The translations under genes were made by a program, and so were the position numbers. From an uncultured Gammaproteobacteria bacterium (GTDB taxonomy: Bacteria; Pseudomonadota; Gammaproteobacteria; JAIEPX01), in contig CAZMLO010000005.1 of assembly GCA_964567285.1 (NCBI GenBank), positions 55,866 through 119,865 on the forward strand: a stretch of DNA of 64,000 nt, read 5' to 3'. The first letter of the stretch is position 1, and each line of letters opens with the position of its first letter. This document shows positions 1,332 through 48,429 of the stretch, in pieces. The notes beneath the pieces were generated by a model. That model did no database searches and was not told the origin of the DNA. It saw nothing but the letters and a program-made list of their open reading frames with translations.

Positions 1332-1396
1332 GGTGTCAGGTCTCCCGTTGACCATTTATCAAATGTTAAATGATCAACGGGAGGCCTGACGCCTAC
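1332..1396. repeat. Palindromic repeat element family 1, copy A (GGTGTCAGGTCTCCCGTTG...CAACGGGAGGCCTGACGCC)
   Basis: Imperfect inverted repeat of about 24-bp arms in the nnr-pncB divergent intergenic region; same arm sequence recurs at 2851, 3598, 8111 and 48371. Confidence 0.7.
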
Positions 1397-1464
1397 TCTC
1401 CGAGTTGTACTTTGGTGGACAATCAGGGATTATTCTGCTCAGGTAAATTGCAAGGTAGCAAGCT

Positions 1465-2841
1465 ATGCATTCAGAATCAGCTTTACTGACAGATCAATAT
1501 GAATTGGTAATGGCTCAAGGTTACTGGCGTCTTGGGATGGCAGAACAAGAAGCCGTTTTTTATTTGAGTTATCGTTCCAATCCATTTGGTGGGAATTATT
1601 TGATCGCTTCCGGTTTGTCGGAAGTCATTAAATACCTAGCGCATTATGCTTTTTCTGAATCGGATATCGCTTATTTGCAAGACTTGCGCACTGCGGAAGG
1701 TCAGGCCCAATTTGATCCTAAATTCTTGCAGTATCTCAGCGAATTAAAATTCCGTTGTAGTGTGGAGGCTGTTCCGGAAGGAACATTAATACAGCCCAAA
1801 GAGCCTTTGCTCAGAATTCAAGGCCCTCTGTTACAGTGCCAACTTTTAGAAACAGCTTTAATCAATTTCGTGAATTTTTCCAGCTTGATCGCAACAAAAG
1901 CCTCCCGAGTATTTTTGGAGGCGCAGGGCGATTCCGTCATGGAATTTGGATTGCGTCGTGCCCACGGGCCTAATGGTGGTCTGATGGCGAGTCGGGCCGC
2001 CTTTATTGGAGGCTGCGATTCCACTTCCAATGTTTTAGCCGGTAAAACCTTTGGTATTCCTATTCAGGGAACTCAAGCTCATAGTTGGATTATGGCCTTT
2101 CCCTCTGAATTAGAAGCTTTTCGAGCTTTCGCACAAACGAATAAGAGTAAAACTATTTTACTTGTTGATACCTACGAAACGCTGAACGGTGTTAAAAATG
2201 CCATCCAGGTGGGACATGAATTACGATCAGAAGGCTTTGATTTAGCAGGAGTGCGTTTAGATTCCGGCGATTTGGCCGAACTTAGTAAATCAGTCCGGAA
2301 AATATTGGATGAAGCGGGTTTCAATAAGACTTTGATTGTGGCCAGCGGTGATCTGGATGAAAATCGAATTCGCGAGTTGAAAGCGAGCGGGGCGGTGATC
2401 AATGTTTGGGGTGTGGGCACGCGTTTAGTGACTGCCTACGATCAACCCGCTCTAAACACGATTTATAAATTAGCGGCCATCAAAAATGCGAATCAGACCT
2501 GGGACTACAAATTAAAAATCTCTGACAGCGCAATTAAAACGACTCTGGCTGGTATTCACCAAGTTCGACGATATTCCACTCACGATCATTTTGTCGGCGA
2601 CCGTATTTATGATATTCAGTTAGGAATATCCGATGAATTTTTACCCGGTGCCGATCAATACGAAGATTTGTTAGTACCGATTTTTGATAAGGGGCACTTG
2701 GTTTACGAGCAACCCAGTTTAATTTCGATGCAAGCCAGAGCAAGAACTCAGCTCAATCAGTTTCTAAAAAGCAGTGAAAGTTATTCCGTCGCTCTCGATG
2801 ATAATCTACTGAATTTACAAAGAAAACTAGGTGTTGACTGA
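1465..2841 (+). CDS. pncB: Nicotinate phosphoribosyltransferase
   Basis: 458-aa ORF; N-terminal LTDQYELVMAQGYW and overall NAPRTase-family pattern. Confidence 0.85.
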   Translation: MHSESALLTDQYELVMAQGYWRLGMAEQEAVFYLSYRSNPFGGNYLIASGLSEVIKYLAHYAFSESDIAYLQDLRTAEGQAQFDPKFLQYLSELKFRCSVEAVPEGTLIQPKEPLLRIQGPLLQCQLLETALINFVNFSSLIATKASRVFLEAQGDSVMEFGLRRAHGPNGGLMASRAAFIGGCDSTSNVLAGKTFGIPIQGTQAHSWIMAFPSELEAFRAFAQTNKSKTILLVDTYETLNGVKNAIQVGHELRSEGFDLAGVRLDSGDLAELSKSVRKILDEAGFNKTLIVASGDLDENRIRELKASGAVINVWGVGTRLVTAYDQPALNTIYKLAAIKNANQTWDYKLKISDSAIKTTLAGIHQVRRYSTHDHFVGDRIYDIQLGISDEFLPGADQYEDLLVPIFDKGHLVYEQPSLISMQARARTQLNQFLKSSESYSVALDDNLLNLQRKLGVD

Positions 2842-2850
2842 AGAGTTAAA

Positions 2851-2912
2851 GGTGTCAGGTCTCCCGTTGGCTATTTAGCATCGTTACATAGCTAACGGGA
2901 GACCTGACACCT
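2851..2912. repeat. Palindromic repeat element family 1, copy B
   Basis: GGTGTCAGGTCTCCCGTTGGCTAT...ATAGCTAACGGGAGACCTGACACC, near-perfect 24-bp arms, starts 10 nt after the pncB stop. Confidence 0.75.
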
Positions 2913-2987
2913 TACATTTTGTAACCGTTTGACTGACTTCTTCACTGTGTTAAACTTCGATTTTCAATCTACGGAAGGATATCCGAT

Positions 2988-3590
2988 ATGCTAGCCATCA
3001 TCTTTGGCATTTTTGCTTATCTGCTGGGTTCTGTGAATACAGCCATTATCGTTTGTCAATTTTTAAAATTACCGGATCCTCGGACGGGCGGTTCTAAAAA
3101 TCCGGGGGCAACTAATGTTTTAAGAGTGGCGGGTAGAAACCCGGCGATTTTGGTTTTGGTGGCGGATGTGCTTAAAGGATTTATTGCCGTATTTTTAGCA
3201 GGGATGTTTGGGCCCTCGGGATTTGGATTGGCTTTTGTGGCTTTAGCAGCGACTTTAGGTCATGTTTTCCCTGTATTTTATGGGTTTCATGGTGGTAAAG
3301 GGGTCGCGACGGCATTGGGTGGATTTTTGGGTTTATCATTTCCTATCGGGATTGTCTGTTTGGTGATTTGGGCTCTTACATTATTTGTCACCCGCTATGC
3401 ATCCTTGAGCTCGTTGATCGCCGTATCGAGTGCGCCTATTTTATTATTATTTGCCAACCTTGGCTATTTTATACCCACTTTAGCAATTGCAGGCCTTGTC
3501 GCCTGGCGACATCTGGAAAATATCGCCCGCTTAAGAGCAGGCACCGAAAACAAAATGGATTTTGGAAATCCTCCAGCAGCATCAGGCTAA
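2988..3590 (+). CDS. plsY: Glycerol-3-phosphate acyltransferase PlsY
   Basis: 200 aa, multiple TM segments, GGSKNPGATNVLR motif characteristic of PlsY. Confidence 0.85.
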   Translation: MLAIIFGIFAYLLGSVNTAIIVCQFLKLPDPRTGGSKNPGATNVLRVAGRNPAILVLVADVLKGFIAVFLAGMFGPSGFGLAFVALAATLGHVFPVFYGFHGGKGVATALGGFLGLSFPIGIVCLVIWALTLFVTRYASLSSLIAVSSAPILLLFANLGYFIPTLAIAGLVAWRHLENIARLRAGTENKMDFGNPPAASG

Positions 3591-3597
3591 ATGTAAA

Positions 3598-3660
3598 AGT
3601 GTCAGGGAGAAGGGGGCGGCCCTCCCTTCTCCCCACACAGTTCAACGGGAGACTCGACAC
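3598..3660. repeat. Palindromic repeat element family 1, copy C (variant with nested GC-rich palindrome)
   Basis: GTGTCAGGGAGAAGGGGGCGGCCCTCCCTTCTCCCC...CAACGGGAGACTCGACAC, immediately after the plsY stop; may double as a terminator-like hairpin (no U-tract). Confidence 0.6.
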
Positions 3661-3744
3661 ATATCGAACGCACCTTTACATCAATAGGCTGAGATTGCTA
3701 TGCTAAGGGCTCAGAGCCACAAATACCGTTGGGATAAAATTACA

Positions 3745-5082
3745 ATGAAAAGGACGATGATCAATATCCGCCTCGTGCTCCTCATTTTAGGGGCTTGTTT
3801 ATTCAACACTGTCGTTGAAGCAACAACTGTAACACTGAATAAAGTTCAGCTTTCCGAGACACCTTCCACAGCACGTGTAAAGTTGGAATTTTCTCAGGAT
3901 ATATCGATGGAGAGTTTTGAATTGCATAACCCTGAACGTTATGTGATTGATTTAAATCATGTGACATTAGCTGCTGAACTTCCCAGTAAAAATTATCCTT
4001 CTCCGCTGAAAAAAATCCGCAGCAATTCAGATGCAGAAAAACTTAGAATAGTCTTGGACTTAGAGCAAAATATTAAACCTCAATTGATGAAAACCAAACA
4101 CTCAAAACTGCAATCAGCTACACTGACCATTAATATTCCGCGCCAGGGCATGAAAGCGGCTCACCCTGAAAAATCTTTAGGGCGTTTATCGTACGCAAAA
4201 AAACCTTCAAAAGCTCAGCCACTACCTGAACCCAAAGCGATTGAAGCAGATGATGATTCCGAAGACTACGACGATGATCAAGAGGAAGAAAAACAACATT
4301 CCATCCAAGCATTACCAGATCCTAGTGCTGTGAAATTGCGAGCGCCTCGTGATGTGGTGGTTGTCATTGATGCTGGACATGGCGGAAAAGATCCTGGTGC
4401 CAAAGGCTGTAATGGCACTCAAGAAAAAGATGTTGTCTTGGAAATCGCAAAACGTTTGCAATATCAAATTAATCAGCAACCGGGTTTTAAAGCCGTTCTA
4501 ACGCGCAAAGGGGATTATTTTATTGGATTGCGTGAACGTCTTGATTTAGCCCGAAAATACCGTGGCGATATGTTTATTGCCATTCATGCCGATGCGCATG
4601 AACATTTGGATGCTTGTGGTGTAGGAGTGTACGCCTTGTCTCAGCGAGGTGCCACCTCTGAAGCGGCTCGTTGGTTGGCGCAGCGCGAAAATGCTTCTGA
4701 ATTTGTTGGAGGTTTGGATCTCAGTGATAAAGATCATGTCTTAAAATCAGTGCTGATTGACCTTTCACAAACTCAATCCATCACAGCCAGTTTACAAATG
4801 GGTTCTGTGCTCTTGCAGCATTTAGGAAAATTTGCCCCCTTGCATCATAACACAGTAGAACAAGCCGCTTTTGTGGTGTTGAAATCACCCGATATTCCCT
4901 CGCTATTAATCGAAACCGGATTTATTTCGAATACCCGAGAAGAGCGTCGGTTGAGAAGTCCGCAGTATCAAACACAGATTGCTGAAGCACTATTAATCGG
5001 TATCAAAGATTATTTTGTTCATCACCCTCCTCGTGGCAGTAGTTTGGCATTAACGCAGTCAAACAAAGGACGTCGGACTTAA
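3745..5082 (+). CDS. amiC: N-acetylmuramoyl-L-alanine amidase (AmiC/AmiB type; N-terminal AMIN-like region + amidase_3 domain)
   Basis: VVVIDAGHGGKDPGA, MFIAIHADA and LLIETGFISN motifs; signal peptide beginning MKRTMINIRLVLLILG; ORF track starts at 3700 but the signal-peptide Met at 3745 is the likelier start. Confidence 0.85.
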   Translation: MKRTMINIRLVLLILGACLFNTVVEATTVTLNKVQLSETPSTARVKLEFSQDISMESFELHNPERYVIDLNHVTLAAELPSKNYPSPLKKIRSNSDAEKLRIVLDLEQNIKPQLMKTKHSKLQSATLTINIPRQGMKAAHPEKSLGRLSYAKKPSKAQPLPEPKAIEADDDSEDYDDDQEEEKQHSIQALPDPSAVKLRAPRDVVVVIDAGHGGKDPGAKGCNGTQEKDVVLEIAKRLQYQINQQPGFKAVLTRKGDYFIGLRERLDLARKYRGDMFIAIHADAHEHLDACGVGVYALSQRGATSEAARWLAQRENASEFVGGLDLSDKDHVLKSVLIDLSQTQSITASLQMGSVLLQHLGKFAPLHHNTVEQAAFVVLKSPDIPSLLIETGFISNTREERRLRSPQYQTQIAEALLIGIKDYFVHHPPRGSSLALTQSNKGRRT

Positions 5083-5172
5083 ACTGAATTTTAAGTATTG
5101 ATTTGTTTTAATTTATCCACTCACTTCAATTGCTAGAAGTGGTAAGATGATCAGATTTTGTCCAGGTCGTGT

Positions 5173-5236
5173 GAAAAGAATGATTTTAAAACCGGAGTTT
5201 ACTCAGGTAAATGAGGATTTTAAAATCATTCTTTTC
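5173..5236. promoter_or_regulatory. Perfect 19-bp inverted repeat (GAAAAGAATGATTTTAAAA / TTTTAAAATCATTCTTTTC) with 26-nt spacer in the amiC-mutL spacer
   Basis: Seen directly in sequence; position is where tsaE sits in E. coli-type synteny (no tsaE here). Confidence 0.4.
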
Positions 5237-5285
5237 GCGCGAGCTGGGCGAAATATGACATTTGTGTGTTAGGAAACCGAAGTAA

Positions 5286-7259
5286 ATGAAAATTCATCGT
5301 CTTGATCCCTTATTAGCGAATCAAATAGCTGCAGGCGAAGTGGTCGAGCGACCGGCTGCTGTGGTTAAAGAATTATTGGAAAACAGTTTAGATGCGGGTG
5401 CCACAGAAATTGATATTGTGATCGAGCAGGGCGGTTTAGGGCTTATCAAAATTCGTGATAATGGTTCTGGCATCGCCAAAGAGGATTTAGCGCTGGCTTT
5501 GTGTCGGCATGCCACCAGTAAAATTGCGAGCGTAGAAGATTTAGAAAATGTAGCGAGTTTAGGTTTTCGTGGTGAGGCCTTGGCGAGTGTCAGTGCTGTT
5601 TCTCGTTTGACCTTAACCTCAGCGGTGAAAAATTCACCCAGTGCTTGGCAAATTCGCTCAGAAGGGCAGGTCGATAATTTAGATATCGTGCCCGCGTCTC
5701 ACCCTGTTGGCACCACCATCGAAGTACGCGATTTATTTTTTAACACACCCGCAAGGCGAAAATTTTTAAAAACGGATAAAACCGAATTTTCTCATATTGA
5801 AACGGTGGTTAAACGCATTTTATTGAGTCGCTTTGATGTGGCCATTTCTTTAACGCACAATAATAAATCTATCCTGCAATCAAAAATTGCCACCAACGAA
5901 GAGCAACAAGAATTGAGAGTCGGTAGCATTTGTGGTGATGATTTTCTGCAGCATGCTTTGAAAATCGATATCGAAGCAGCAGGATTACGGCTCTGGGGTT
6001 GGGTAGGCTTGCCTACATTTTCTCGCTCTCAAAATGATAAGCAATATTTTTATGTTAATGGCCGTATTGTCCGCGATAAATTATTGACTCATGCCCTCCG
6101 ACAAGCTTATGACGATGTATTGATGCACGGACGCCACCCCGTTGCGGTATTATTTTTAGAATTGGATCCTTTCGGAGTTGATGTGAATGTACATCCTACC
6201 AAACACGAAGTACGATTCAGAGAATCCCGTTTGGTGCATGATTTTATTCGGCGCAGTGTGCAACGAGCGATTGCAGAAATAAGACCCGCTGATTCAATAC
6301 AAACAATGTCACCACAGATAGAAACGGCGAACAAAATTCACAGCATTCAGCCGAACCGATTTGAACCTTTACAAGCTCCATTAGCTTCAAATCCATTGCA
6401 AAAAACATTGTCACTATCGAATTCAAATCAGATTGAAGAGTCTGAAGAGCTCATCTTACAAGTTCAGCAACAACAATCTCAACCCAGTTCTTCATCGTAT
6501 TCCACGCATCAAAGGACAGCGCCTACCATTTCAGAATCGCGAATTCAAGAGGAAATGGCAGCCTATACTGTAATGCATGAAACGGCCGATGAGCTCGCAG
6601 AACAATTTGCCTCACAAAAAAATACCACTGATGTTTTTAGCGCTGATCATCGTGAGCATCAAGTTGAACAAACCATTCCGCCGCTGGGTTTTGCTTTAGC
6701 GCAATTAAAAGGCATTTATATTTTAGCAGAAAATGCACAAGGATTAATTATTGTCGACATGCATGCCGCGCACGAACGTATTAATTATGAACGCTTAAAA
6801 ACACAATGCTTGAGTGGGAAAGTCATTGCTCAAACCTTGTTATTACCCGTCACAGTTTCCGTCACCGAAGAAGAAGCCGATTGCGCCGAACAATTTTCAG
6901 ATACCTTTGAACAACTCGGATTATCCGTAGAAAGAATCGGTGAAACAAATTTAGTGGTAAGGCACGTACCCACCTTATTACAACAGTCCGACATCGCTCA
7001 ACTGGTTCGCGATGTGATTGCTGATTTATTATCGTATGAAAACTCCGAAAGAATAAAAGCCCACCTCAATGAAATTCTCGCCACCATGGCCTGTCACGGT
7101 TCAGTACGCGCCAACCGAACGCTAACCCTTACAGAAATGAATCAACTACTCAGAGACATGGAACAAACCGAACGTTCAGGCCAATGCAATCACGGCCGAC
7201 CCACCTGGTCACAACTCACCCTATCTGAATTGGATAAGCTCTTCCTGAGGGGGCGTTGA
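5286..7259 (+). CDS. mutL: DNA mismatch repair protein MutL
   Basis: 657 aa; N-terminal [35 protein letters not shown] motif; C-terminal dimerisation region. Confidence 0.95.
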
Positions 7260-7288
7260 GATAAGTTCCTACGTGGCAAAGCCAAGAG

Positions 7289-7438
7289 TTTCTGTCTTAG
7301 ACTTACCTCTGTAGCGAATAGGTATCACGATGATAGCGGGATGGGCCATGGATGGCCCTTTGAGCGGAAGAGGTAAGTCTAAGACAGAAATTCTTGGCCT
7401 ATCCTGAGGCACCAATTCTTGGTCCATCCTGTGGCTCG
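7289..7438. repeat. Structured intergenic element: 22-bp perfect stem with 58-nt loop containing an internal GGGCCATGGATGGCCC palindrome, followed by two tandem 25-bp direct repeats
   Basis: TTTCTGTCTTAGACTTACCTCT (7289-7310) pairs with AGAGGTAAGTCTAAGACAGAAA (7369-7390); direct repeats AATTCTTGGCCTATCCTGAGGCACC / AATTCTTGGTCCATCCTGTGGCTCG at 7389-7438; lies between convergent mutL and pncA. Confidence 0.5.
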
Positions 7439-7452
7439 GCACTAGTCCCTGC

Positions 7453-8025
7453 CTAGATGATCTTCACGCCGAAGCTTTTTAAAACTCTGATCGTTTCAAG
7501 ACCGTCTTCTTCATTAATTGCCCGAGTTGCTTCTTTAACGACCACCGTCTCAAAATCATGTTTAATGGCATCGAGTGCACTGGCTTTAACACAATAATCG
7601 AGGGCAAGTCCCCCAATAATCAGGCGTTGGATATTGTGCTCATTCAGAAGCTCAACCAAAGTACGGCCATCTGAAGTCTCAGCATGAAAAGCCGAGTAAG
7701 CTTCGTGATCGGCTTTAAAAGCCTTGCTTACAACAAGCGTTTTTTCAGGGAAATGGACGCCCTCATGGAGCTCAGCTCCGTGTGTATTTTGAACGCAATG
7801 TGCTGGCCAAGGGCCGCCTTGTTCTTTAAAGCTGACATGGTTAGTGGGGTGCCAATCGCGAGAGGCAATAATGGTGGCGTGCCCCATTTGTGCGGATTCA
7901 ATCAAGGTGTTTATCAATGGAATAATCTTATCCCCATCTTGAACCTGGAGGGCTCCGTCTGGCAAAAAATCATATTGTAAATCAACTAGTAACAGCGCAT
8001 CTTTCGGGCCAAACTTTAAATCCAT
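7453..8025 (-). CDS. pncA: Nicotinamidase/pyrazinamidase (isochorismatase family)
   Basis: LLLVDLQYDF...IIASRDWHP...HVSF pattern (Asp, DWHP and His metal/catalytic positions typical of PncA); ATG at 8025 preferred over the TTG at 8043. Confidence 0.65.
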   Translation of the reverse strand: MDLKFGPKDALLLVDLQYDFLPDGALQVQDGDKIIPLINTLIESAQMGHATIIASRDWHPTNHVSFKEQGGPWPAHCVQNTHGAELHEGVHFPEKTLVVSKAFKADHEAYSAFHAETSDGRTLVELLNEHNIQRLIIGGLALDYCVKASALDAIKHDFETVVVKEATRAINEEDGLETIRVLKSFGVKII

Positions 8026-8110
8026 AATCCCACCCCCTAACAAAGAGGCGCCAGCATACAGAATTCCTGTTTTATAAACAATGGGTAAGATTAGTCGCCC
8101 AACAAAGGTA

Positions 8111-8172
8111 GGGTGTCAGGTCTGCCGTTGCCCCTATAACAATGTGACAGAGTCAATGGGAGACCTGACACC
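8111..8172. repeat. Palindromic repeat element family 1, copy D
   Basis: GGTGTCAGGTCTGCCGTTGCCCCTAT...GTCAATGGGAGACCTGACACC; the ORF-track ORF 8081..8815 reads through it, so the true CDS start is downstream. Confidence 0.7.
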
Positions 8173-8251
8173 TTCCAATTTTCCATCTGGGGTGCTTCTG
8201 ACGAAGATTTTTGATATAATCCGTAGCATTTCAATCTGTGGGTGTACGGCT

Positions 8252-8815
8252 ATGTCGATTCAGGGACTAAAAAATCTTCTGGTACGTTATAAAGCGACGT
8301 TGAGCTATATCTTGCTTATTGTGGTCTTGAATAAACTGTATGGGAGTTTACCGTTATTCAGCTTTTTTGATGAACTCGTATCGCCGCTCGATGTTGCCGT
8401 GGGCATGATCTACATTTTTCGGGATTTTTCTCAGCGCGAGATTGGGCGCGCAGTGATCCTGGCCATGCTATTCGCGGGGTATTTGAGTTTTGTGCTGGCG
8501 GATCAAACAGTGGCTTACGGGAGTCTTTGTGCCTTTTTAATCGGGGAATTTATTGATTGGGGCATTTTTACTTATACCCGCAAGCCTTTATCTCAACGGC
8601 TACTCTGGTCAGCTTTAATCAGCGCTCCTATTGATAGTCTAACTTTCCTCGCCCTCTTAGGTCGCTTGAACTGGTTAGCAATCAGCGTTATGACCTTAAC
8701 CAAAGTCTTAGGTGTGTTGTTCGTTTGGGCTGTCTGGCGATTCAAAGGCGATCATTCTGCTCTTAGTCCCTCGGCACCGCTTAGCAGAAGTTCAGGCTCG
8801 GCTCTCGAGACATAA
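8252..8815 (+). CDS. DUF165/VUT-family (YhhQ-like, queuosine-precursor-transporter family) inner membrane protein
   Basis: IYIFRDFSQREIGRAVILAMLFA and ISAPIDSLTFLALLG segments match the YhhQ pattern (FPFIFLATDLTVRIFGAPLARRII; NVSDTLAFFFIAF); stop is 3 nt before miaA. Confidence 0.5.
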   Translation: MSIQGLKNLLVRYKATLSYILLIVVLNKLYGSLPLFSFFDELVSPLDVAVGMIYIFRDFSQREIGRAVILAMLFAGYLSFVLADQTVAYGSLCAFLIGEFIDWGIFTYTRKPLSQRLLWSALISAPIDSLTFLALLGRLNWLAISVMTLTKVLGVLFVWAVWRFKGDHSALSPSAPLSRSSGSALET

Positions 8816-8817
8816 CG

Positions 8818-25931: not shown

Positions 25932-25945
25932 ATTTTGTAACATCG

Positions 25946-30534: not shown

Positions 30535-30545
30535 AAATGATGCTC

Positions 30546-31682: not shown

Positions 31683-31750
31683 ATCAGTATCCTACGGTTG
31701 TGGAGAGTGGGATGAATCAATTTGGACGCTATAGTACTCGGGGGTCCAGG

Positions 31751-31824
31751 GAGGGGTCAAGTCTTGAATCAGGAATCAGGCAGGGTCAAAACTTGACCCT
31801 GCCTGATTCAAGACTTGACCCCTC
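31751..31824. repeat. Long near-perfect hairpin (about 36-bp stem, 4-nt loop, 7-nt bulge from an AATCAGG duplication) overlapping the 3' end of the def-like gene
   Basis: GAGGGGTCAAGTCTTGAATCAGG(AATCAGG)CAGGGTCAA-AACT-TTGACCCTGCCTGATTCAAGACTTGACCCCTC; not followed by a U-tract on either strand. Confidence 0.55.
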
Positions 31825-32545
31825 CTTTTGCCGCTTGTTTGAGCGATTGCAAAATCTCAGGCTCCAAATTGGAAAATGTTAATTTGATACGATCTGGAAT
31901 AATCAGAGGATGCCCCAAGTTATCTCGATCAACAGCCAGTGTGGGCACATCCGGTTGTTCAGAAAGCGGGAAGGGGTTCTCGAGAATTTCTTCGATCAAT
32001 AGGGCAAATTGTTGGCGCTGAGAATCTGACATATCGTTGATCAAGCGATGAACAAAAACAATGCCATTCAAATGATCAATTTCATGTTGAACAATATGTG
32101 CGCGTAATTCAGTAAATAATTCTTCATGGAAATTTCCCTGAATATCTTGAAAGCGAATTACGACCCAGCGATGTCGGTGCACTTTTCCTCGGAAAAAACA
32201 GGGTACACTGATACAACCCTCACCTGTAATCGGGAAATAAATCTCAGGAGAACGTTCAACAATATGGGGATTAATTAAGACTTCAGCCTTGGGAATTGGC
32301 ATATTAGGATAGCGTTTTTGGGCTCTTTCTAATGCGGTCTCGCTTGCATAGCCCACAATAATAATACTGGGAACTGGCGCTGGAATTTGTGCACACTGAT
32401 TGGCGGCAATACCCACACCGCCTTCTTCGATGGCCAGAGAGATCATGATATCAATTGTATTTTGAATGTTTTTTTCAGCACTAAAATCAACGCGATGAGT
32501 TGGTGTAAATAAAAGCGGATCTCCAAAACAACGTACTGAGTGCAT
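31808..32545 (-). CDS. def: Peptide deformylase-like protein with N-terminal extension
   Basis: GVGIAANQ (motif 1), GEGCISVP (motif 2), HEIDHLNG (motif 3); 245 aa versus about 170 for canonical Def; last 5 codons lie in the hairpin. Confidence 0.7.
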   Translation of the reverse strand: MHSVRCFGDPLLFTPTHRVDFSAEKNIQNTIDIMISLAIEEGGVGIAANQCAQIPAPVPSIIIVGYASETALERAQKRYPNMPIPKAEVLINPHIVERSPEIYFPITGEGCISVPCFFRGKVHRHRWVVIRFQDIQGNFHEELFTELRAHIVQHEIDHLNGIVFVHRLINDMSDSQRQQFALLIEEILENPFPLSEQPDVPTLAVDRDNLGHPLIIPDRIKLTFSNLEPEILQSLKQAAKGGVKS

Positions 32546-32559
32546 AAACTACCTATCGC

Positions 32560-33678: not shown

Positions 33679-33690
33679 TCAATCTCCTCA

Positions 33691-35538: not shown

Positions 35539-35548
35539 ATTGTCCCAT

Positions 35549-36512: not shown

Positions 36513-36569
36513 AAACAGGGGATTATAGCAAAGTGAGAAGGGAAAGTTGAGTCTTTAGATAGAGCTTTT

Positions 36570-36647
36570 CTGGATCACCACGCTCCGCTCGCGATAAAGG
36601 AGTAGCGATGCGCCCACCGTCATCGCGAGCGGAGCGTGGCGATCCAG
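36570..36647. repeat. Palindromic repeat family 2, full copy (26-bp arms CTGGATCACCACGCTCCGCTCGCGAT / ATCGCGAGCGGAGCGTGGCGATCCAG, 26-nt loop)
   Basis: Seen in sequence between rsfS and the His-rich OMP gene; one mismatch between arms. Confidence 0.75.
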
Positions 36648-36731
36648 AAGATTGTTTGAGGGAGAATCAAGAGATGGCGGAAACAAAAAAGCAGTTCCCG
36701 AATGAACGGGAACTGCTTCAGAGTCAGAGAA

Positions 36732-37610: not shown

Positions 37611-37771
37611 ATAAACTCCCTTAATGTCATTAATAAAAAAAGTAAAATCTACAACTTAAGTGATCGTTTGTCAAGGTTATCGAAGAAAAAACGCAGCAAC
37701 AACCCGATCAAACTTGAGTATAGGAGACGATCTAAAATATTTCCAGTTTTTGACAAGATTTTTTGCGAGAC

Positions 37772-38416: not shown

Positions 38417-38507
38417 CCTAAGCGCTCGATATTTACTGTCACATAACCACTGTTGCTAAAGGGATTACTGGAAGAATAAAACGCCATACAGTTATAGATC
38501 TTCTTGA

Positions 38508-39536: not shown

Positions 39537-39733
39537 CGGTCTTTTCCAATTGTGAACTCAGCCTCATTTAAGATCGTCGCTCGCTGCCGATAGCCTAGTT
39601 TAAGGTATTCTCTCTCGGGACCGCCCTACAAGTACATCCCTGTAAGGGCTGCGGGTTCCGCCATCCTGGCTCCACACGCTCCCGAGAGGTAATACCTTAA
39701 ACTAGGCTCTCAGCAGCCGTGCCTCAATAACTT

Positions 39734-40363: not shown

Positions 40364-42917
40364 TGTTCACAAGTCTGCCGGGAACGACGATCACTTTTTT
40401 GGGTGCTCGTCCTGACAAAGATTCTTGGACTTTTTCGTGCGCTAAGGCTTCTGATTCAATTTTATCTTGTTCGCATTCAATCGGAACGGTGATTTCACCG
40501 CGGCGTTTACCATTGACCTGCAGAACTAAAATAATACTTTCAGCTTTGAGGGCTTTATTATTGACGCGTGGCCAGCGAGCGAGTGCAATGTTGTCGCCGA
40601 AGCTTAATTGTTGCCAAAGATGATGCGTAAAATGCGGCGTAATCGGTGCCAATAATCGCAATAATTTACCCACACCTTCTCGAATTAAAGGGATATTGTC
40701 AGGCGTCAGCGGTTTTAATTCCAGGAGCATATTGAACAATTTCATTGTGGCCGAAACGACGGTATTGAATTGCAAACGTTCCATGTCAAAATTAGCTTGT
40801 TGCAAAATTAAATGCATTGTGCGGCGAGTAGCACGTGTTTGTTCAGGCACAATCGACCAATCGAATTCTCGAGGGTCGGCTATGTTCGCTTGCATCACAG
40901 CATCAGCAACTTCTTGGCAGTAGGTCCATACTCGTTTGATAAAGCGATGCGCGCCTTCAACGCCAGCATCAGACCATTCCAACGTTTGTTCAGGAGGAGA
41001 GGCAAAGAGAATAAACAAACGCAAGGTATCAGCACCGTATTTCTCGATATATTCTTTGGGCGAAACGGTATTGCCTTTCGATTTAGACATTTTGCTGCCA
41101 TCTTTGAGCACCATTCCCTGCGTGAGCAGTCGTGTAAAGGGTTCGTCCGAATTCAGCAAGTGTTCGTCGCGCAGAATTTTGTGGATAAAACGCGCATACA
41201 GTAAATGCATGATGGCATGTTCAACACCGCCGATGTATTGATCGACGGAGGTCCAATATTTGGCGCGATCATCCAGGATTGCTTGGTGCTGATTAGGGCA
41301 GCAATTGCGAGCATAATACCAGGAAGATTCCATAAAAGTATCGAAGGTATCAGTTTCGCGTTTAGCTTCAGCACCACATTGTGGGCAGCTCACATTGATA
41401 AATTCTTCGATTTTTTCGAGCGGTGAGCCGGGTTCAGTCAGAACAATGCCGGTAGGCAGTAAAACAGGTAAATCTTTTTCAGGTACAGGTACAATGCCGC
41501 AATGAGGGCAGTGAATCATGGGGATCGGTGCCCCCCAGTAACGTTGTCGTGAAATACCCCAATCGCGAAGGCGATAATGCGTTTTGAGAGTACCTTTGCC
41601 CATGTCACTTAATTTTTGTGCCACCGCTCTGAGGCCTTCTTGAGAGGACATGCCGGTAAATTCGCCAGAATCGATGAGGATTCCCTCCGCCGTATAGGCA
41701 TTGTCAGAAAAATCCCAATTGGAATGTGAGGTAGCAGACACGGTTTGTGAGGAATCTTTTTGAGAAAGTTCAGTTTCCGGAGGATTTTGGTCTGAAGAGG
41801 TCTTCTGGATAGAGAATGGCTGGATTACAACACGCAACGGTAATTGATACTGCTTTGCAAAATGAAAATCCCGCTCATCATGAGCAGGCACGGCCATCAC
41901 GGCACCGGATCCGTATTCCATCAACACATAATTCGCGATCCAAACTGGAATGGCTTCATTGTTGATCGGATTGATGACTCTAAAGGGAGTTGGTACGCCT
42001 TTTTTCTCCAGCGTGGCCAATTCTGCTTCGGCCACTTTTACATGGCGACATTCTTCAATAAAAGCGGCAACGCTAGGATCTTTCTTAGCTGCTAAGGCCG
42101 CCAGGGCATGATCAGGGGCCACAGCCACATAGGTTACCCCAAATAAAGTATCGGGCCGAGTGGTATATACAATTAAGGGCTGAAGACCTTCAGCAGATGA
42201 AGGCGCATCCGGCACAAATTCAATTTCAACGCCAGTAGAACGACCAATCCAATTACGCTGCATGGTGCGTACTTGCTCTGGCCAGCCCGTTAAGGTGTCT
42301 AAATTATCCAGTAATTCATCGGCATAGTCTGTGATTTTTAAAAACCACTGTCGAATTTTTCGGCGTTCAACGGGCGCTCCCGATCGCCAGCCACAACCAT
42401 CGACAACCTGCTCGTTGGCAAGTACTGTCATGTCGACTGGATCCCAATTGACTTCGGCTTCTTTTTGATAGGCTAAGCCTTTTTTGTACATCCGCAAAAA
42501 CAACCATTGTTCCCACTGATAATATTCAGGATCGCAGGTTGCATATTCTCGTTTCCAATCGATTGCAAAACCTAGCTGTTTGAACTGATTATGCATGTCA
42601 GCGATGTTTTGACGCGTCCAATTGGAGGGGGCCAGTTTATTCTGCAGCGCGGCATTTTCGGCGGGTAAGCCAAAGGCATCCCAACTCATTGGTTGAAGCA
42701 CATTCTTGCCCAACATGCGCTGATACCGACTGATCACATCACCAATCGTATAGTTCCGAACATGCCCCATGTGCAACTGGCCGCTAGGGTATGGCAGCAT
42801 AGACAGGCAATAAAATTTCTCAGTATTGAGGTCTTCTTTGGCTTCAAAACTGTGTTGCTCTTCCCAAAAGGCTTGAGCACTGGCCTCAAGCTTTCTGGCT
42901 TCGTAACTTTTCTCCAT
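40353..42917 (-). CDS. leuS: Leucyl-tRNA synthetase
   Basis: [41 protein letters not shown] (HMGH) and KMSKS; start at MEKSY (42917) by alignment with E. coli LeuS, ORF track starts at 42929. Confidence 0.95.
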
Positions 42918-43105
42918 CGGTAGTCTCATTTAACCAACAATATTAATCGCTAAGGATACCTGAGTGGTCGATAATAAAGAAGAGGGAGGATCAGGGGGCA
43001 GATCTCAGTTTGATGAGTTCTTTAAGAACCCAACAAACAGAGATCTGACCCCTGATCCCACTTTGACCTATTCTACATTCTGTAGTACCCTTGTAGATTC
43101 TGTCT

Positions 43106-44515
43106 GTGCGCCTATCGAGGTTGTTCATGAGCTCGTTTATCTCTGGTTTGTCTGATTTGCTGGGTCGAAAGAAGCTCAGTACTCCAACGTATAACGCTCA
43201 AAGCTTATTTACTGTTCGTAATGCTCATCAACTGCTCGAATCCTCTCAACGAGGTGCATATCTGAAGAAAATCAATGAAGTCGTTAAAATGCCTGAAGAG
43301 CATTTCCAGGCCTTGTATGGGAAGTTGGTGGACAATTTTGCAGAGTTTGTTCAGATTCTGCCGATGCGGTATAGCGAACCTTTGACGGGGATCTTGCAAG
43401 AAGGTCTAAGACATGGGTTGATGGCGCTGGAATTATTATTTGAAACCTCAACAAAAAAACCGCAGCCGCTCTATGTTTATGCCGTTTTCAGCATGGCCTT
43501 ATTGGCCGATATAGTGAAAGTGATTGCTACACAAAAGGTTATGATCTCCGATGAAAATGGTGTTTACATCGATGAATGGTGCCCTTTCGCGGGATCGATG
43601 GTAGAGCAGGGTGGTGAGTATTACAAAATACGAGAATACGGCGGTTATCGAGAAGCTTTTTTAAATTCGGCGAATCCGCTTCTAGCACAACGTGTGATGC
43701 CCGATTTAGGTCTGCGTTGGTTGGCGTCCAGCCCGCGGATTTTTGATATGTGGATTGCGGTTCTAACAGGCCATGAAGATTGGGCAGGCGATTTAGGGAT
43801 GCTCAAAAAATTACTCAAAAAAGAATGGGAAAAACAAAAACAACTGGAACTCTGGTTAGAACAAGTTCCGATGGATTTTACCGTACCTGAAGATGTGGCA
43901 ATCGGCGAAAAATTTTTAGAATGGTTAAAAGATGCCTTAGAAAATGAAAAAATTAGCGTGAATGAAAAAGATTCATTTGTGCACATTTTAGACGAAGGGA
44001 TTTTAATCAAAACCCCCGAAGTTTACGATGCTTTTAATCATACCTATTCGAGCTATCGCGATTTTATCGTTCTGCAAAAACAATTTAATTACTTAGGCAT
44101 TACAAAACTCAGCGGATACGATTATCGCTTTGAACAATATTTTACTCAACGGGCCGACACTTCAGCGCGCTTGGGATTTCTTTCGCATACGCAACAAGCA
44201 ACTCAGGTAGCAACCAAAGCTAATGCAGAATTAAAACAAAGTGCTGAAGCCATGGCGAATCAAAAGGCTATTTCGGCATTAACAGGCTCAGGACTTATTC
44301 AAAATAAAGACACTACAACTAAAAATGCTCAACAAATTTTGATCAAAGACCCCGCAATTATTTACGCTGCCGTCGGAAAAATTCCACCAGTGAGCAAAGA
44401 AATGAAAGATGTCAGTGTGACATGGGTTCAAGACAAACAGTTGCCTAAATTACCCAATCAAAAACCGCCACAGCAAACCGTAGTGCCTCCTACCAACCAA
44501 AGAACCCGTCGCTAA
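43106..44515 (+). CDS. Hypothetical protein; weak pattern resemblance to MobH/TraI_2 relaxase N-terminal (HD-like) domain with catalytic His/Asp not conserved
   Basis: LPMRYSEPLTGILQEGLRHGLMALELLF and ALLADIVKVIATQKVMISDENGVYIDEWCPF resemble, from memory, the LPxSxxHHHxGxGGLLxHSLEV and LLHDxGK segments of TraI_2; unverified. Confidence 0.4.
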   Translation: MRLSRLFMSSFISGLSDLLGRKKLSTPTYNAQSLFTVRNAHQLLESSQRGAYLKKINEVVKMPEEHFQALYGKLVDNFAEFVQILPMRYSEPLTGILQEGLRHGLMALELLFETSTKKPQPLYVYAVFSMALLADIVKVIATQKVMISDENGVYIDEWCPFAGSMVEQGGEYYKIREYGGYREAFLNSANPLLAQRVMPDLGLRWLASSPRIFDMWIAVLTGHEDWAGDLGMLKKLLKKEWEKQKQLELWLEQVPMDFTVPEDVAIGEKFLEWLKDALENEKISVNEKDSFVHILDEGILIKTPEVYDAFNHTYSSYRDFIVLQKQFNYLGITKLSGYDYRFEQYFTQRADTSARLGFLSHTQQATQVATKANAELKQSAEAMANQKAISALTGSGLIQNKDTTTKNAQQILIKDPAIIYAAVGKIPPVSKEMKDVSVTWVQDKQLPKLPNQKPPQQTVVPPTNQRTRR

Positions 44516-44540
44516 AAACCATTCATATTTTGTGCCCAGC

Positions 44541-46061
44541 TCAAGCTTTGCGCGGTGGTGTTGTTCCGCCGAAGCGGATAAACACTAAACCCAAGAACGA
44601 TAATAATAAAACAGGCCAGCTGCCCAATTTTGCCCAAGGTGTGGAGCCTTCGATGGTGAAAACTTTTGCAGTGATCACGCCTGTTTTATGTTCAGGTAAA
44701 TAATATTTGATAAAACCTCGGCTGGTGATAATGGCAGATGCCCCACGGCTCGATAAAAATAATTGTGGTAGGCCATTTTCGATAGAGCGCATTCTGGCCA
44801 TTTGTAGGTGTTGCTCTGAAGCAATTGAACCATCGAACCAACTATCGTCTGTGATGGTTACAATCATTTCCGCATGTTTTAGTGCACGTCTTACTTCATC
44901 AGGTTCAACAATTTCATAGCAGATAAACCCAGCCATCGGAATGTCATGGATTACCATCAACGGTTGTTTCAGAGGTCCACTGCTAAAATCAGACATCGGA
45001 ATATTGAGAGCACTGATCAATGGATTGAGCACAACTTTTAGCGGCACATATTCTCCAAAGGGCACTAAGTGCCGTTTGTAATAGCTGCCACTAAATTGGC
45101 CTATCATCAGCATGCCATTATAAAAATTTTTCCCTTCAGCCACGGGTATTCCTAGTATCACTGAACTGTTATGCGATTTCGCTTCTTGACTCAGGGCATC
45201 TAAAAAAGGCTCTGCCACCGTTGAAAGTGCAGGGATTGCACCTTCTGGCCAGATAATTAAATCACTTTTCCAATGTTGTTGAGTGGTCTTATGATATTTT
45301 TCAACGATCGATTGGAGTTGATCCGGTTGCCATTTCAGTTCTTGGGGAACATTACCTTGGATCATCGTCACCGTTACTGACTTGCCGTTTTTGTGCGTGA
45401 AAGGATAAAAACTCAGGAGGGCACCATTGATCCAAATTACAGCGATTAAAATCATATTAAACAAAGGATGCCATCGCGTATTTTGTTGCGGGTCTGAAGG
45501 GCGCAGTTGCCATCCCGCTTGCACCAACAAACCCACTGTGTAAGTGATTAACAGAGAAATGCCGTATGTACCCAGAATAGGTGCATAGCCGCCCAAAGGA
45601 GAATCAATTTGAGTATATCCCAAAATTAACCAGTGCCAACCTGTAAACAACGAACTGCGAACCCATTCCAAAAAGACCCAACTCGCTGGGAAAAATATCA
45701 AGGAACGAATTGAAGAACCCGCTGGAGTCCATCGTGCAAGTAAAAAACCTTGCAGCGTCGGGAAAAGAGCTTCATAACTAACGACCAAAACGGTGGCGAG
45801 GATAGCAAGTGGCGCTTCAAGATGTCCGAATTCATGAATACTAATATAAATCCACCACGTTCCTATGCCAAATAAACCGATACCATAAAAAAATCCCAGC
45901 CAGGCAGCACGCCGAGGAGATTCTGTTTGCCAGAGAATTAATAATAACGTCGGGCCTAGAATTGCCAGCGGTGCCCAAGAAAATGGGGCATATGCGAGCA
46001 CCGTTATCACTCCGGCAATGAAAGCCAGCACTAATTGCACACTAAAATGAAGTGGATACAA
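44541..46061 (-). CDS. lnt: Apolipoprotein N-acyltransferase
   Basis: 506 aa; N-terminal polytopic membrane region + C-terminal nitrilase/CN-hydrolase domain; conserved position next to corC. Confidence 0.85.
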   Translation of the reverse strand: MYPLHFSVQLVLAFIAGVITVLAYAPFSWAPLAILGPTLLLILWQTESPRRAAWLGFFYGIGLFGIGTWWIYISIHEFGHLEAPLAILATVLVVSYEALFPTLQGFLLARWTPAGSSIRSLIFFPASWVFLEWVRSSLFTGWHWLILGYTQIDSPLGGYAPILGTYGISLLITYTVGLLVQAGWQLRPSDPQQNTRWHPLFNMILIAVIWINGALLSFYPFTHKNGKSVTVTMIQGNVPQELKWQPDQLQSIVEKYHKTTQQHWKSDLIIWPEGAIPALSTVAEPFLDALSQEAKSHNSSVILGIPVAEGKNFYNGMLMIGQFSGSYYKRHLVPFGEYVPLKVVLNPLISALNIPMSDFSSGPLKQPLMVIHDIPMAGFICYEIVEPDEVRRALKHAEMIVTITDDSWFDGSIASEQHLQMARMRSIENGLPQLFLSSRGASAIITSRGFIKYYLPEHKTGVITAKVFTIEGSTPWAKLGSWPVLLLSFLGLVFIRFGGTTPPRKA

Positions 46062-46072
46062 GGCTGCAACCC

Positions 46073-46900
46073 TTAAATTATATTGACCTTCAATAACCGA
46101 ATGCGGCGACTATCGGCATGTAATATTTTAATTTTAAATTGATCAAGTGTGATCGATTCACCGCGTTTAGGCAAATGACCGAAGCGATTCATGATCAGGC
46201 CACCGATGGTGTCGAATTCTTCATTGCTAAAGTCCGAGCCAAACTGTTTATTGAAAGCCTCGATGGATGTCAAAGCTTTGACAGTGAATTGTCCCTCAGC
46301 GATTTTTTTGATTTGAGTTTCAGGATCATCAGTATCCGATTCATCTTCAATTTCGCCCACAATTTCTTCCAGCACATCTTCTATAGTGACAAGTCCAGAA
46401 ATACCGCCGTATTCATCAACTACGATAGCCATGTGATTATGATTTTCTCGAAATTCGTTCAGCAGCACATTCAAGCGTTTACTTTCAGGAATAAAAACAG
46501 CGGGACGCAAATATTTGCTCAGTTCAAAATGTTCTGTGCTCCGATTAAAGTAAGGCAATATATCTTTGATCAATAAAATCCCTTTAATTTCATCGCGATT
46601 CTCACCCACCACAGGATAACGTGAATGTTGATTTTCCGCGGCGATAGGTAAAATTTCCTCCAGCTTCGCATTGCTATCTATCGTACTCATTTGAGATCGA
46701 GGGATCATAATGTCTCGTACTTTCATTGAAGAAACTTGTAAAACACCTTCAATCATGCGTAAAGATTCTTGGTCAAGAATATTGTGATCCGCCGCTTTTT
46801 TTAGCAGGTAAATCAACTGCTCACGATTTTGCGGTTCGTGAGAGAGTAAATGTTTGGTGCGTTCAAGCCAGCGTTTGAGCGCAGTATTGGGCTCAGACAT
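46073..46900 (-). CDS. corC: Mg/Co efflux protein CorC (CBS pair + CorC_HlyC domain)
   Basis: VRDIMIPRSQM and CorC_HlyC C-terminus; start at MSEPN by alignment with E. coli CorC (ORF track 46933). Confidence 0.85.
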   Translation of the reverse strand: MSEPNTALKRWLERTKHLLSHEPQNREQLIYLLKKAADHNILDQESLRMIEGVLQVSSMKVRDIMIPRSQMSTIDSNAKLEEILPIAAENQHSRYPVVGENRDEIKGILLIKDILPYFNRSTEHFELSKYLRPAVFIPESKRLNVLLNEFRENHNHMAIVVDEYGGISGLVTIEDVLEEIVGEIEDESDTDDPETQIKKIAEGQFTVKALTSIEAFNKQFGSDFSNEEFDTIGGLIMNRFGHLPKRGESITLDQFKIKILHADSRRIRLLKVNII

Positions 46901-47339
46901 TGTGTTCTTCTCCATAAGGGTTTTTAAAACCAAGTTTCTTTAAGGTAGCAATTTCCATAGCTTCCATAGTAGCAGCTTCCGTCTCCGTTTGATGATCATA
47001 ACCTTGTAAATGATAACAAGCATGCACAGTCAGGTGTGCCCAGTGAGCGGTTTCTTCGATACCTTGGGTTTCGGCTTCTCGAGCCACGACAGGGGCACAA
47101 ATCACAATATCTCCAACGAGGGGTTCATGATCCAGCGTGAAGGATAGCACATTGGTGGATCCTTTTTTATCCCGATATTGCTGATTCAACTGTGCGGATT
47201 CTTCTTCATCGACAATACGAATGCCGATTTCGGCACCCTCATGATCGGGGAGTAGTGCCGCACAGATCCAGGTATAAAAATCCTGTTCAGAAGGCAAGTT
47301 AGTTTGAGTGGTTGCAATATGCAGACTAAAATCAATCAT
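46893..47339 (-). CDS. ybeY: Endoribonuclease YbeY
   Basis: HWAHLTVHACYHLQGYDH zinc motif; start MIDFSL by alignment. Confidence 0.9.
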   Translation of the reverse strand: MIDFSLHIATTQTNLPSEQDFYTWICAALLPDHEGAEIGIRIVDEEESAQLNQQYRDKKGSTNVLSFTLDHEPLVGDIVICAPVVAREAETQGIEETAHWAHLTVHACYHLQGYDHQTETEAATMEAMEIATLKKLGFKNPYGEEHNV

Positions 47340-48315
47340 GGTTTTTTTCATCAAGTCTGTTATAAGCGTTGACAATCAGTTGCACTAAAGGATGGCGAAC
47401 CACATCGTGGGCTTGGAAAAAAGTAAAAGAAATTTCATCAATGTCTTTGAGCACTTGAATAATATGACGCAAACCTGATTCTGTATCTTTGGGTAAATCC
47501 ACTTGAGTAATATCACCGGTGACGACCACTTTAGAACCAAACCCGATCCGTGTTAAAAACATTTTCATTTGTTCTTTAGTGGTGTTTTGACTTTCATCCA
47601 GAATAATAAAAGCATCGTTCAAACTGCGGCCCCGCATAAAGGCAAGCGGTGCAATTTCGATAATATTTTGCTCAATATATTTCAAGGTGCGTTCTGTGCC
47701 CAGCATTTCATAAAGCGCATCGTATAAAGGTCTTAAATAAGGATCGACTTTATCAGCCATATCACCGGGCAAAAATCCTAATTTTTCACCTGCTTCAACC
47801 GCCGGTCGCACTAAAACAATCCGACGTACCTTATCCGATTCTAAAGCTGAAACTGCTGCCGCAACAGCAAGATAGGTTTTTCCGGTTCCTGAGGGACCGA
47901 TGCCAAAATTGATATCGTGCGTTAAAATATTATTGACATAAATTGCTTGATTTTGACTGCGTGGCTTAATGGTTCGCTCACCCGTGTGAATGGCAAATTC
48001 TTGAGGATTTTTCTCTAAGGGATGATCAATCTGGTTGACTTCAGACTGTAAAATTAAAAAGATTTGAGCGGTACTTATGCGACTTGTGGCTGTTTCTGCA
48101 TAGATTTTTTCAATGACCTGTTTGGCAATACTCACAAACTTAGGTGGGCCAATAATATTGAACGTGTGTCCGCGATTGGAAATTTCGACACCCAGATAAC
48201 GTTCGATTTGCCTCAAATTTTGGTCGAATTGACCGGATAGGTCCGCTAAACGCCGATTATCGGCGGGCGAAAGTACTAAACTTTCTGTTCTGCGTGATTT
48301 ACTCAAAGTGACCAT
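47332..48315 (-). CDS. ybeZ: PhoH-like ATPase YbeZ
   Basis: GPSGTGKTYLAVAAAV Walker A, 327 aa, conserved ybeZ-ybeY-corC order. Confidence 0.85.
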   Translation of the reverse strand: MVTLSKSRRTESLVLSPADNRRLADLSGQFDQNLRQIERYLGVEISNRGHTFNIIGPPKFVSIAKQVIEKIYAETATSRISTAQIFLILQSEVNQIDHPLEKNPQEFAIHTGERTIKPRSQNQAIYVNNILTHDINFGIGPSGTGKTYLAVAAAVSALESDKVRRIVLVRPAVEAGEKLGFLPGDMADKVDPYLRPLYDALYEMLGTERTLKYIEQNIIEIAPLAFMRGRSLNDAFIILDESQNTTKEQMKMFLTRIGFGSKVVVTGDITQVDLPKDTESGLRHIIQVLKDIDEISFTFFQAHDVVRHPLVQLIVNAYNRLDEKNHD

Positions 48316-48370
48316 AATCTCCAGTTAATCCTAATAGTATCATTATAGCACAGGTGCCATGTAGGAAGGG

Positions 48371-48429
48371 GGCAGGTTTCCCGTTGACTAGGTAACGGAA
48401 GTTACCTAGTCAACGGGAGACCTGACACC
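48371..48429. repeat. Palindromic repeat element family 1, copy E (left arm degenerate)
   Basis: GGCAGGTTTCCCGTTGACTAGGTAAC...GTTACCTAGTCAACGGGAGACCTGACACC between ybeZ start and miaB stop. Confidence 0.7.

Follow-up and report, generated by a model that had tools for sequence, protein, structure and literature searches.

Among the bacterial genes that resemble those of the REP-associated tyrosine transposases (RAYTs; REP, repetitive extragenic palindromic sequence) are some that carry on their flanks long terminal inverted repeats (TIRs) rather than hairpin-forming REPs. Di Nocera et al. 2013 (PMC3733652) named these genes TIRYTs and the units that they form TIRtrons, and reported that many of the repeats carry the motif GGGGWSAS and that there are 'moderately abundant families of TIRs', whose members stand alone, form dimers or are clustered. 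In the survey of Quentin et al. 2018 (PMC6006769) most TIRYTs fall into subclass 2.1, which comprises long proteins with a C-terminal helix-turn-helix (HTH)-like domain; no REP-like sequences were found adjoining subclass 2.1 genes, and the TIRYT type is among the largest Y1 subclasses, represented in 14.9% of the strains surveyed. Here we describe a family of palindromic elements of about 60 bp in a 64,000-nucleotide stretch of DNA from an uncultured gammaproteobacterium (contig CAZMLO010000005.1, positions 55,866 to 119,865; the whole stretch is referred to below as the window). We propose, with a probability of about 0.8, that these elements are non-autonomous head-to-head dimers of a TIRtron terminal repeat, mobilised in trans by a TIRYT, now or formerly. 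The repeats in the window are a new family within this already described but little-studied class of TIRYT-associated TIRs.

The 19-nt arm sequence GGTGTCAGGTCTCCCGTTG has nine matches in the window, on both strands and with up to three mismatches, whereas 0.01 are expected from 100 shuffled sequences. These matches pair to form four intact inverted-repeat palindromes and one damaged palindrome, so the dispersed family proposed in a first-pass annotation of this DNA is real, and the coordinates given there were right to within 1–3 nt. The five copies are as follows:

1332-1393: copy 1, an intact dimer whose arms occupy 1332-1350 and 1375-1393; its DNA folds at -25.8 kcal/mol (z = -9.9).
2851-2911: copy 2, likewise an intact arm dimer, which folds at -29.2 kcal/mol (z = -12.9).
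3597-3661: copy 3, damaged, with a right arm at 3643-3661 (three mismatches) and the left head remnant AAGTGTCAGG.
8112-8172: copy 4, an arm dimer whose inner stem has diverged; fold -17.6 kcal/mol, z = -5.3.
48368-48429: copy 5, an arm dimer whose inner stem is perfect, folding at -30.6 kcal/mol (z = -11.9).

Arm-by-arm listing shows three zones. The outermost 21 nt or so, GGTGTCAGGTCTCCCGTTGAC, are almost invariant, the next 10 nt or so are diverged yet recognisable, with a consensus near TATTTAACA, and the last zone is the loop. The first-pass annotation described arms with variable loops, but because arm similarity fades over about 10 nt beyond the first 21 or so, these loops are largely decayed arm; loops do exist, and the true ones are only 2–8 nt long. 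As single-stranded DNA the four intact dimers and three related palindromes described below fold with z scores of -5.3 to -12.9 relative to shuffled controls. A single consensus arm, in contrast, has no fold beyond that of shuffled sequence (-1.8 kcal/mol, z = -0.11). In copy 3 the head remnant AAGTGTCAGG is followed by the nested GC palindrome that had been reported there; it lies at 3605-3633, is found nowhere else in the window, and is the only part of the copy that pairs (z = -3.7). Compensatory changes are present in 12 of the 27 pairs of the dimer stem, but we do not count them as structural selection, because a dimer of any one arm variant gives the same pattern. No Rfam 15 family matches the copies at its gathering score, and the sub-threshold matches are to eukaryotic miRNA hairpin models only.

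All five copies, together with two of the three related palindromes, are wholly within intergenic DNA. Since only about 9% of the window is intergenic, the probability of this arising by chance for the five copies is about 7e-6, and the description of the family as entirely intergenic holds.

The arm is also present outside the window, where it lies beside transposase genes. Scanning one genome per GTDB species (a set that excludes the source genome of the window) with the exact 19-mer returned seven stretches. One of these, in Brevibacillus (L001), lacks both a second arm and a palindrome and is an apparent chance match. Two metagenome-assembled genomes (MAGs) account for the remaining six, an 'uncultured Gammaproteobacteria' (loci L002, L004, L005 and L007; 36–41% GC) and a member of the Thermoanaerobaculia (loci L003 and L006; 65–68% GC). 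A scan of JGI metagenomes with the same 19-mer gave only four isolated single arms, which are chance-like. In Thermoanaerobaculia locus L003 a segment of about 1 kb is bracketed by the arm (2366-2384, +) and, with two mismatches, its inverted copy (3381-3399, -), and the sole long open reading frame (ORF) within it encodes 342 aa from a GTG codon (309 aa as the called gene P0001). Its product contains the HUH motif NHYHLFL and the tyrosine motif SRYVVLNPV, matches Pfam Y1_Tnp (8.9e-12), and scores 83.9 bits against the NCBIfam equivalog 'REP-associated tyrosine transposase' (cut-off 80). At L004, L005 and a JGI contig (L030) the exact arm is followed, about 65–80 nt further downstream, by decayed members of this gene family (tblastn 1.8e-11).

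Elements of intermediate size are found at these loci as well. L004 is a 390-bp derivative that has retained both arms and a gene remnant encoding MINHYHFLML, and L006 and L007 carry arm dimers similar to those in the window, with interiors of 30 nt and 48 nt, respectively. The elements thus form a series of about 1 kb, 390 bp, about 110 bp and about 60 bp, and this series, which reaches 62 bp, suggests an origin by loss of the interior. In our proposal the starting unit would be a TIRtron in which a RAYT-like Y1 (HUH) TIRYT gene is bracketed by inverted copies of a 20–30-nt TIR. Loss of the interior would then yield TIR dimers that keep both ends and have lost the transposase, and that would for this reason be non-autonomous. 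A working TIRYT encoded elsewhere in the genome would act on the dimers in trans and spread them. By analogy with IS200/IS605 elements and RAYTs, movement would probably take place on single-stranded DNA with the dimer folded as a long hairpin, and neighbouring transcripts would be affected, if at all, as a by-product of that hairpin.

Because there is next to no interior between their two inverted ends, the elements could also be regarded as miniature inverted-repeat transposable elements (MITEs) of an ordinary DDE insertion sequence, which has terminal inverted repeats and generates target-site duplications. They resemble the Correia/NEMIS, ERIC and RUP MITEs in having short non-coding inverted ends, and in being intergenic, hairpin-forming and potentially co-transcribed with their neighbours. 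The transposases of Correia/NEMIS, ERIC and RUP are of the DDE type and leave target-site duplications. In all three, mobilisation depends on transposases to which the terminal inverted repeats serve as recognition sites (PMC3733652). Here, however, the partner is a Y1 enzyme: each full-length or decayed gene between such arms is Y1/HUH and never DDE, and direct reading of the sequence reveals no direct repeats flanking the copies. A DDE origin is accordingly extremely improbable.

Comparison with other assemblies and with relatives bears on whether TIR dimers have come and gone. The window lies on an NCBI contig of 145,693 bp. All four other assemblies of the organism (Logan SRR28640811, SRR28640814, SRR14932608 and SRR14932609) are 99.96–100% identical to the window over their overlaps, and all copies are present in each, so there is no presence/absence polymorphism within the species among these four. 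The closest named relatives reach at most about 79% identity in PyrG. Two further loci (L026 and L027), with PyrG identities of 86–91% and the same gene order as the window, come from nearer relatives. Neither contains the copy at 48368 (in the phoH-miaB spacer) or the related palindrome at 62323 (in the surE-VTT spacer), and in L027 the surE-VTT spacer is 46 nt long with an empty site. No arm is present in 21 kb of syntenic sequence in L027. L026 has one related element, in a ybeY-phoH spacer that the window does not have, and its 119-nt interior has no similarity to transposase sequence. These comparisons show gain or loss of copies at the scale of related species. The first-pass annotation had suggested a MITE/REP-like element, and this can now be put more sharply: the arm is the terminal inverted repeat of RAYT-like Y1 genes, intermediates of about 390 and 110 bp exist, and near relatives are without the copies at the corresponding sites.

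Several observations weigh against mobilisation of the dimers by a TIRYT. First, there is no transposase gene in the window, where a six-frame profile search found nothing at E <= 1 and tblastn gave noise only. Second, all three gammaproteobacterial transposase genes with exactly this arm (L004, L005 and L030) are frameshifted or truncated, and the family may therefore be a fossil population that no longer moves. Third, neither a target-site signature nor a junction between empty and filled sites could be resolved in the spacers of the relatives, because these are too diverged to align. Fourth, the head of the main family, GGTGTCAG, differs from GGGGWSAS at one position. Finally, the literature searched offers no demonstration of DNA being cut or moved by a TIRYT, and the term is confined to two comparative-genomics papers (PMC3733652, PMC6006769), neither of which puts the proteins to the test.

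The transposases flanked by the arm belong to a large family. A profile search returned more than 7,700 relatives, and the surroundings of seven were examined. They are mostly about 290–345 aa long, and the sources label many of them 'REP element-mobilizing transposase RayT'. Y1_Tnp spans only the first 120–150 aa or so of the family members; HTH_23, HTH_38, HTH_28 and similar models give weak matches in a few of 16 members, and the Thermoanaerobaculia transposase has no Pfam HTH match. A protein search with the gammaproteobacterial transposase fragment found only four short, truncated relatives, and viral contigs scanned with the transposase profile contained no relative. Transposase relatives at 44–56% identity are flanked by inverted repeats that share a 12-nt head, GGGGTCAGGTCT, which is carried by L031, L033 and L012, with GGGGTCAGTTCT at L010 and GGGGTCAGGTCTGCCGTTGAC at L034. 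The repeats at these loci, together with a more distant one, are as follows:

L031, Acidobacteria, 72% GC: inverted pair of GGGGTCAGGTCTTGTACTATGTGGGTT.
L033, Nitrospirota: inverted pair of GGGGTCAGGTCTT...
L012, source not known, 74% GC: inverted pair of GGGGTCAGGTCTTGATTTTC.
L010, Thiohalocapsa: GGGGTCAGTTCTCGCGTTG.
L034, JGI contig: GGGGTCAGGTCTGCCGTTGACTTAAG, upstream of the gene.
L011, ENA/NCBI contig: the more distant repeat AGGGTCACACCT...

L031 also has a 125-bp dimer of the GGGGTCAGGTCTTGTACTATGTGGGTT repeat 8 kb away (19388-19494). Because the 12-nt head is found at transposase loci of Acidobacteria, Nitrospirota and Thiohalocapsa, it is a property of the whole transposase family in at least three phyla. 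Two of the loci have further features. At L010 the Thiohalocapsa transposase gene is directly followed by a run of at least 14 direct tandem copies of GGGGTCAGTTCTCGCGTTG (1015-1583) and is preceded by one inverted copy. At L012 (9964-12223) the GGGGTCAGGTCTTGATTTTC inverted repeats enclose a Macro-domain gene along with the transposase gene, and a third, outer repeat also takes in a NAD_binding_10 gene; these two may be TIRtron passenger genes.

The distribution of the longer arm is less easily accommodated. The Thermoanaerobaculia and gammaproteobacterial loci share an identical 21-nt arm even though identity between their Y1 domains is only 38.5%, and closer transposase relatives (51–54% identity) have only the 12-nt head in common. 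This raises the possibility that the palindromes or the arm are passed between phyla or recruited separately from the transposase gene; in a variant of this explanation the arm is a recognition site, under deep constraint, that has been co-opted by the host. A hint of co-option comes from copy 1, where an arm provides an outward-facing CTGACA as a -35-like hexamer, 18 nt from CATAAT (window 1310-1339, -). Together the hexamers match a sigma-70-type promoter at 10 of 12 positions, a near-consensus arrangement that points at a yjeF-like gene; the copies other than copy 1 have no such -10 partner. However, a third lineage, represented by L034, has nearly the same 21-mer, which makes ancestral retention of the arm plausible, and we consider it improbable that the palindromes spread without the transposase or were taken over by the host.

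Relaxing the head to GGKGTCARRTCT gives 10 matches in the window against 0.03 expected, and reveals three further palindromes with related but distinct arms (heads GGGGTCA[AG][AG]TCT) and one solo arm, all missed by the first-pass annotation. These are listed below, together with the segment that had been called a possible half copy:

31750-31825: a related composite palindrome of another subfamily, head GGGGTCAAGTCTTGAATCAGG; fold -38.9 kcal/mol, z = -11.7.
42988-43058: a related palindrome, heads GGGGGCAGATCTCAGTTTG and GGGGTCAGATCTCTGTTTG, arm pattern GGGG[GT]CAGATCTC..GTTTG; fold z = -9.2.
62323-62371: a related palindrome, heads AGGGTCAGGTCTAAGATTG and GGGGTCTGGTCTAACATTG, arm (A)GGGTCAGGTCTAAGATTG; fold z = -8.3.
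59704-59722 (- strand): a solo arm remnant, GGTGTCAAATCTGC, in the eno-ftsB spacer; a weak call from a single 12-nt head match.
53180-53225 (+ strand): the former half copy, consisting of GAAGGTGTCAG, 17 nt and TAGTCAAC, upstream of pyrG.

The last of these, placed at 53185-53225 by the first-pass annotation, has only 11 + 8 nt in common with the family and is not significant by nhmmer (E = 19); it is at most a heavily decayed remnant. The palindrome at 31750-31825 lies between the start of an mltB-like gene and the stop of a def-like gene and overlaps the last six def-like codons. Its head, GGGGTCAAGTCTTGAATCAGG, is also present at MAG loci L002, L004 and L007. The def-like ORF (31808-32545, -) encodes 245 aa, of which only residues 2–169 form the peptide deformylase domain, and its last six codons and stop sit within the palindrome, which may have altered the 3′ end of the gene. 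At L002 (5458-5512, in the gammaproteobacterial MAG) the main-family arm is fused to a GGGGTCAAGTCTTGACCCC-type palindrome, so that members of two subfamilies are nested or joined. The palindrome at 42988-43058 is situated between the divergent leuS (-) and a TraI_2-like gene (+); the latter (43106-44515, +) has TraI_2 and TraI_2_C domains and encodes a putative conjugative nickase/helicase. The palindrome at 62323-62371 separates the surE stop from the start of a VTT-domain gene. One kilobase past the end of the window in the same organism (L023, 3504-3519) a solo 16-nt arm remnant directly follows the rpoS stop, and is itself followed by a genuine terminator-like hairpin with a T-run.

With these relatives included, the correspondence to TIRtrons can be set out. 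First, the layout is the same, with a Y1/HUH gene within inverted repeats (intact at L003, with a decayed gene at L004, and with the arm upstream at L005, L030 and L034). Second, the repeats are likewise plain inverted repeats that do not fold on themselves, as illustrated by the z score of -0.11 for the single window arm. Third, the proteins are similarly long, with a C-terminal extension, though HTH matches are weak and patchy. Fourth, gene-free repeats occur in the same forms: as dimers (the window, L006, L007 and L031), as a group (L010) and as singles (L023 and 59704-59722). The fit to GGGGWSAS is complete (8 of 8 positions) for GGGGTCAG, which is present in the right arm of the 42988 palindrome and at L010, L012, L031, L033 and L034; it is 7 of 8 for the main-family head GGTGTCAG, for the 31750 palindrome (GGGGTCAA) and for the right arm of the 62323 palindrome (GGGGTCTG). 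There are also differences. The sequence family is new and comes from a low-GC gammaproteobacterium that is uncultured; conservation of the head extends over 12 nt (GGGGTCAGGTCT) across three phyla, in contrast to the published 8-nt motif; and repeats adjoin the genes, whereas subclass 2.1 genes were reported without REP-like neighbours (PMC6006769). The arm motif itself is not mentioned in the literature searched, where only unrelated primer sequences matched.

Another class to consider is that of the GTAG-tagged REPs and REPINs served by short RAYTs, as in Escherichia coli or Pseudomonas (Bertels and Rainey 2011, PMC3116915; Bertels et al. 2017, PMC5581495). In both systems two inverted repeats and a short spacer make a long hairpin, the repeat flanks a Y1 transposase gene, and copies are intergenic and clustered; the architecture of the dimers is thus REPIN-like (PMC3116915, PMC3337134), and NCBIfam places the flanking transposase under 'REP-associated tyrosine transposase'. 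The position of GTAG points both ways. All four Thermoanaerobaculia arms have it 2 nt upstream of the head, whereas of nine window arms only three have it next to the head, overlapping it or no more than 3 nt away; the same holds for none of six gammaproteobacterial MAG arms that flank TIRYT genes, nor for the L007 dimer. Moreover, the unit repeat is not a hairpin as a REP, an imperfect palindrome of 20–40 bp, is, the lone arm being non-palindromic (z = -0.1) and only the dimer palindromic, and the spacer is only 2–8 nt. The transposases are of the long TIRYT type (about 290–345 aa), with a C-terminal extension and weak HTH matches, and the head matches the TIRYT motif GGGGWSAS. A classical REP/REPIN system is therefore very unlikely. 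The IS200/IS605 elements share the Y1/HUH catalytic domain (Pfam Y1_Tnp), and a single-strand DNA chemistry without target duplication is probably common to both; their ends, however, are dissimilar subterminal hairpins rather than inverted copies of one sequence, and the NCBIfam IS200 model scores the flanking transposase at 17.8 bits against a cut-off of 55. Three other candidates can be set aside: integron attC sites, since the adjoining genes belong to the core housekeeping set and the ends do not match; CRISPR, since the copies are dispersed rather than arrayed; and a known RNA family, there being no Rfam match.

The window has a GC content of about 43% and looks gammaproteobacterial in its succession of genes, which runs yjeF/tsaE, pncB, plsY, amiC-like, mutL and miaA, followed further along by lnt-corC-ybeY-phoH-miaB, pyrG, eno-ftsB-ispD-ispF, surE, nlpD and rpoS. 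Copy 1 lies between the divergent yjeF-like gene (-, start at about 1274) and pncB (start at 1465). Copy 2 begins 10 nt past the pncB stop (2841) and leaves 77 nt between its end and the plsY start (2988), and copy 3 is located about 7 nt past the plsY stop (3590), with the amiC-like start at 3700. Copy 4 is between a divergent isochorismatase-like gene (-, start at 8043) and a Vut_1-family gene whose real start is probably 8252. Copy 5 follows the miaB stop (-, 48434) at a distance of 5 nt and is upstream of the phoH start (48315). The first-pass impression that copies often sit right after stop codons is thus correct for copies 2, 3 and 5 (after pncB, plsY and, on the minus strand, miaB), but not for copies 1 and 4, which lie between divergent genes.

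These positions invite the explanation that the hairpins are primarily host regulatory signals, either terminators or stabilisers of mRNA 3′ ends, maintained by selection. Three of the five copies start 5–10 nt past a stop codon, the dimer hairpins are very stable, and in PMC3733652 REPs are hypothesised to act in transcription termination and mRNA stabilisation. However, a T-tract is missing after the stem at every one of the five copies, the tails are not T-rich, and a terminator scan flags none of them. Copies 1 and 4 are downstream of no gene, and the 42988 palindrome also lies in a divergent promoter region. A terminator role, as suggested in the first-pass annotation, is therefore unsupported, because T-tracts are absent and two of the five copies are between divergent genes. 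In addition, the arm also flanks transposase genes in several phyla, which is not expected of a host terminator, and relatives are without copies at the same sites. Stabilisation of transcripts by copies 2, 3 and 5 is possible, as is a host role at the 3′ ends of their transcripts, although the sequence gives no indication of the latter. That regulation is what primarily maintains the hairpins seems unlikely to us, and caution is warranted against labelling them as terminators in the annotation of this organism.

The reading of these elements as TIRtron repeat dimers has further uses. The TIRYTs are a large transposase class, apparently without experimental testing, and the 21-nt arm and the 60-bp dimers, compact and abundant, make up a defined substrate for binding and cleavage work. 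The window and the loci gathered here contribute a size series that extends from a full element of about 1 kb down to 60 bp, and the 12-nt head, found over at least three phyla, extends the published 8-nt motif.

The elements account for about 9% of the intergenic DNA of the window. An earlier estimate of one copy per 13 kb is true as an average, but the distribution is clumped rather than even: four of the five copies are packed within 6.9 kb, and L008, the 8.5 kb of this organism's DNA upstream of the window, is free of copies. The 75 kb of the organism covered by the window, L008 and L023 contain five dimers and one solo arm of the main family; classical REPs and REPINs reach tens to hundreds of copies per genome. 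Use of the copies as a genomic marker, as had been suggested, is plausible, yet the copies are clumped and it is in these 75 kb that they have been examined.

The window also contains inverted repeats that are unrelated to the family. Three long intergenic ones, at 5151-5258, 36568-36649 and 39583-39717, have arms of 52, 33 and 41 nt, and an Rfam search of two of the three regions gave nothing above noise. An inverted repeat of similar architecture is present in relative L026 (7175-7304). Just downstream of mutL, at 7274-7405 (+), there is a match to the TwoAYGGAY RNA (Rfam RF01731) at 44.6 bits, against a gathering score of 43, and this RNA is built on a 30-nt inverted repeat (7281-7310 and 7369-7398).

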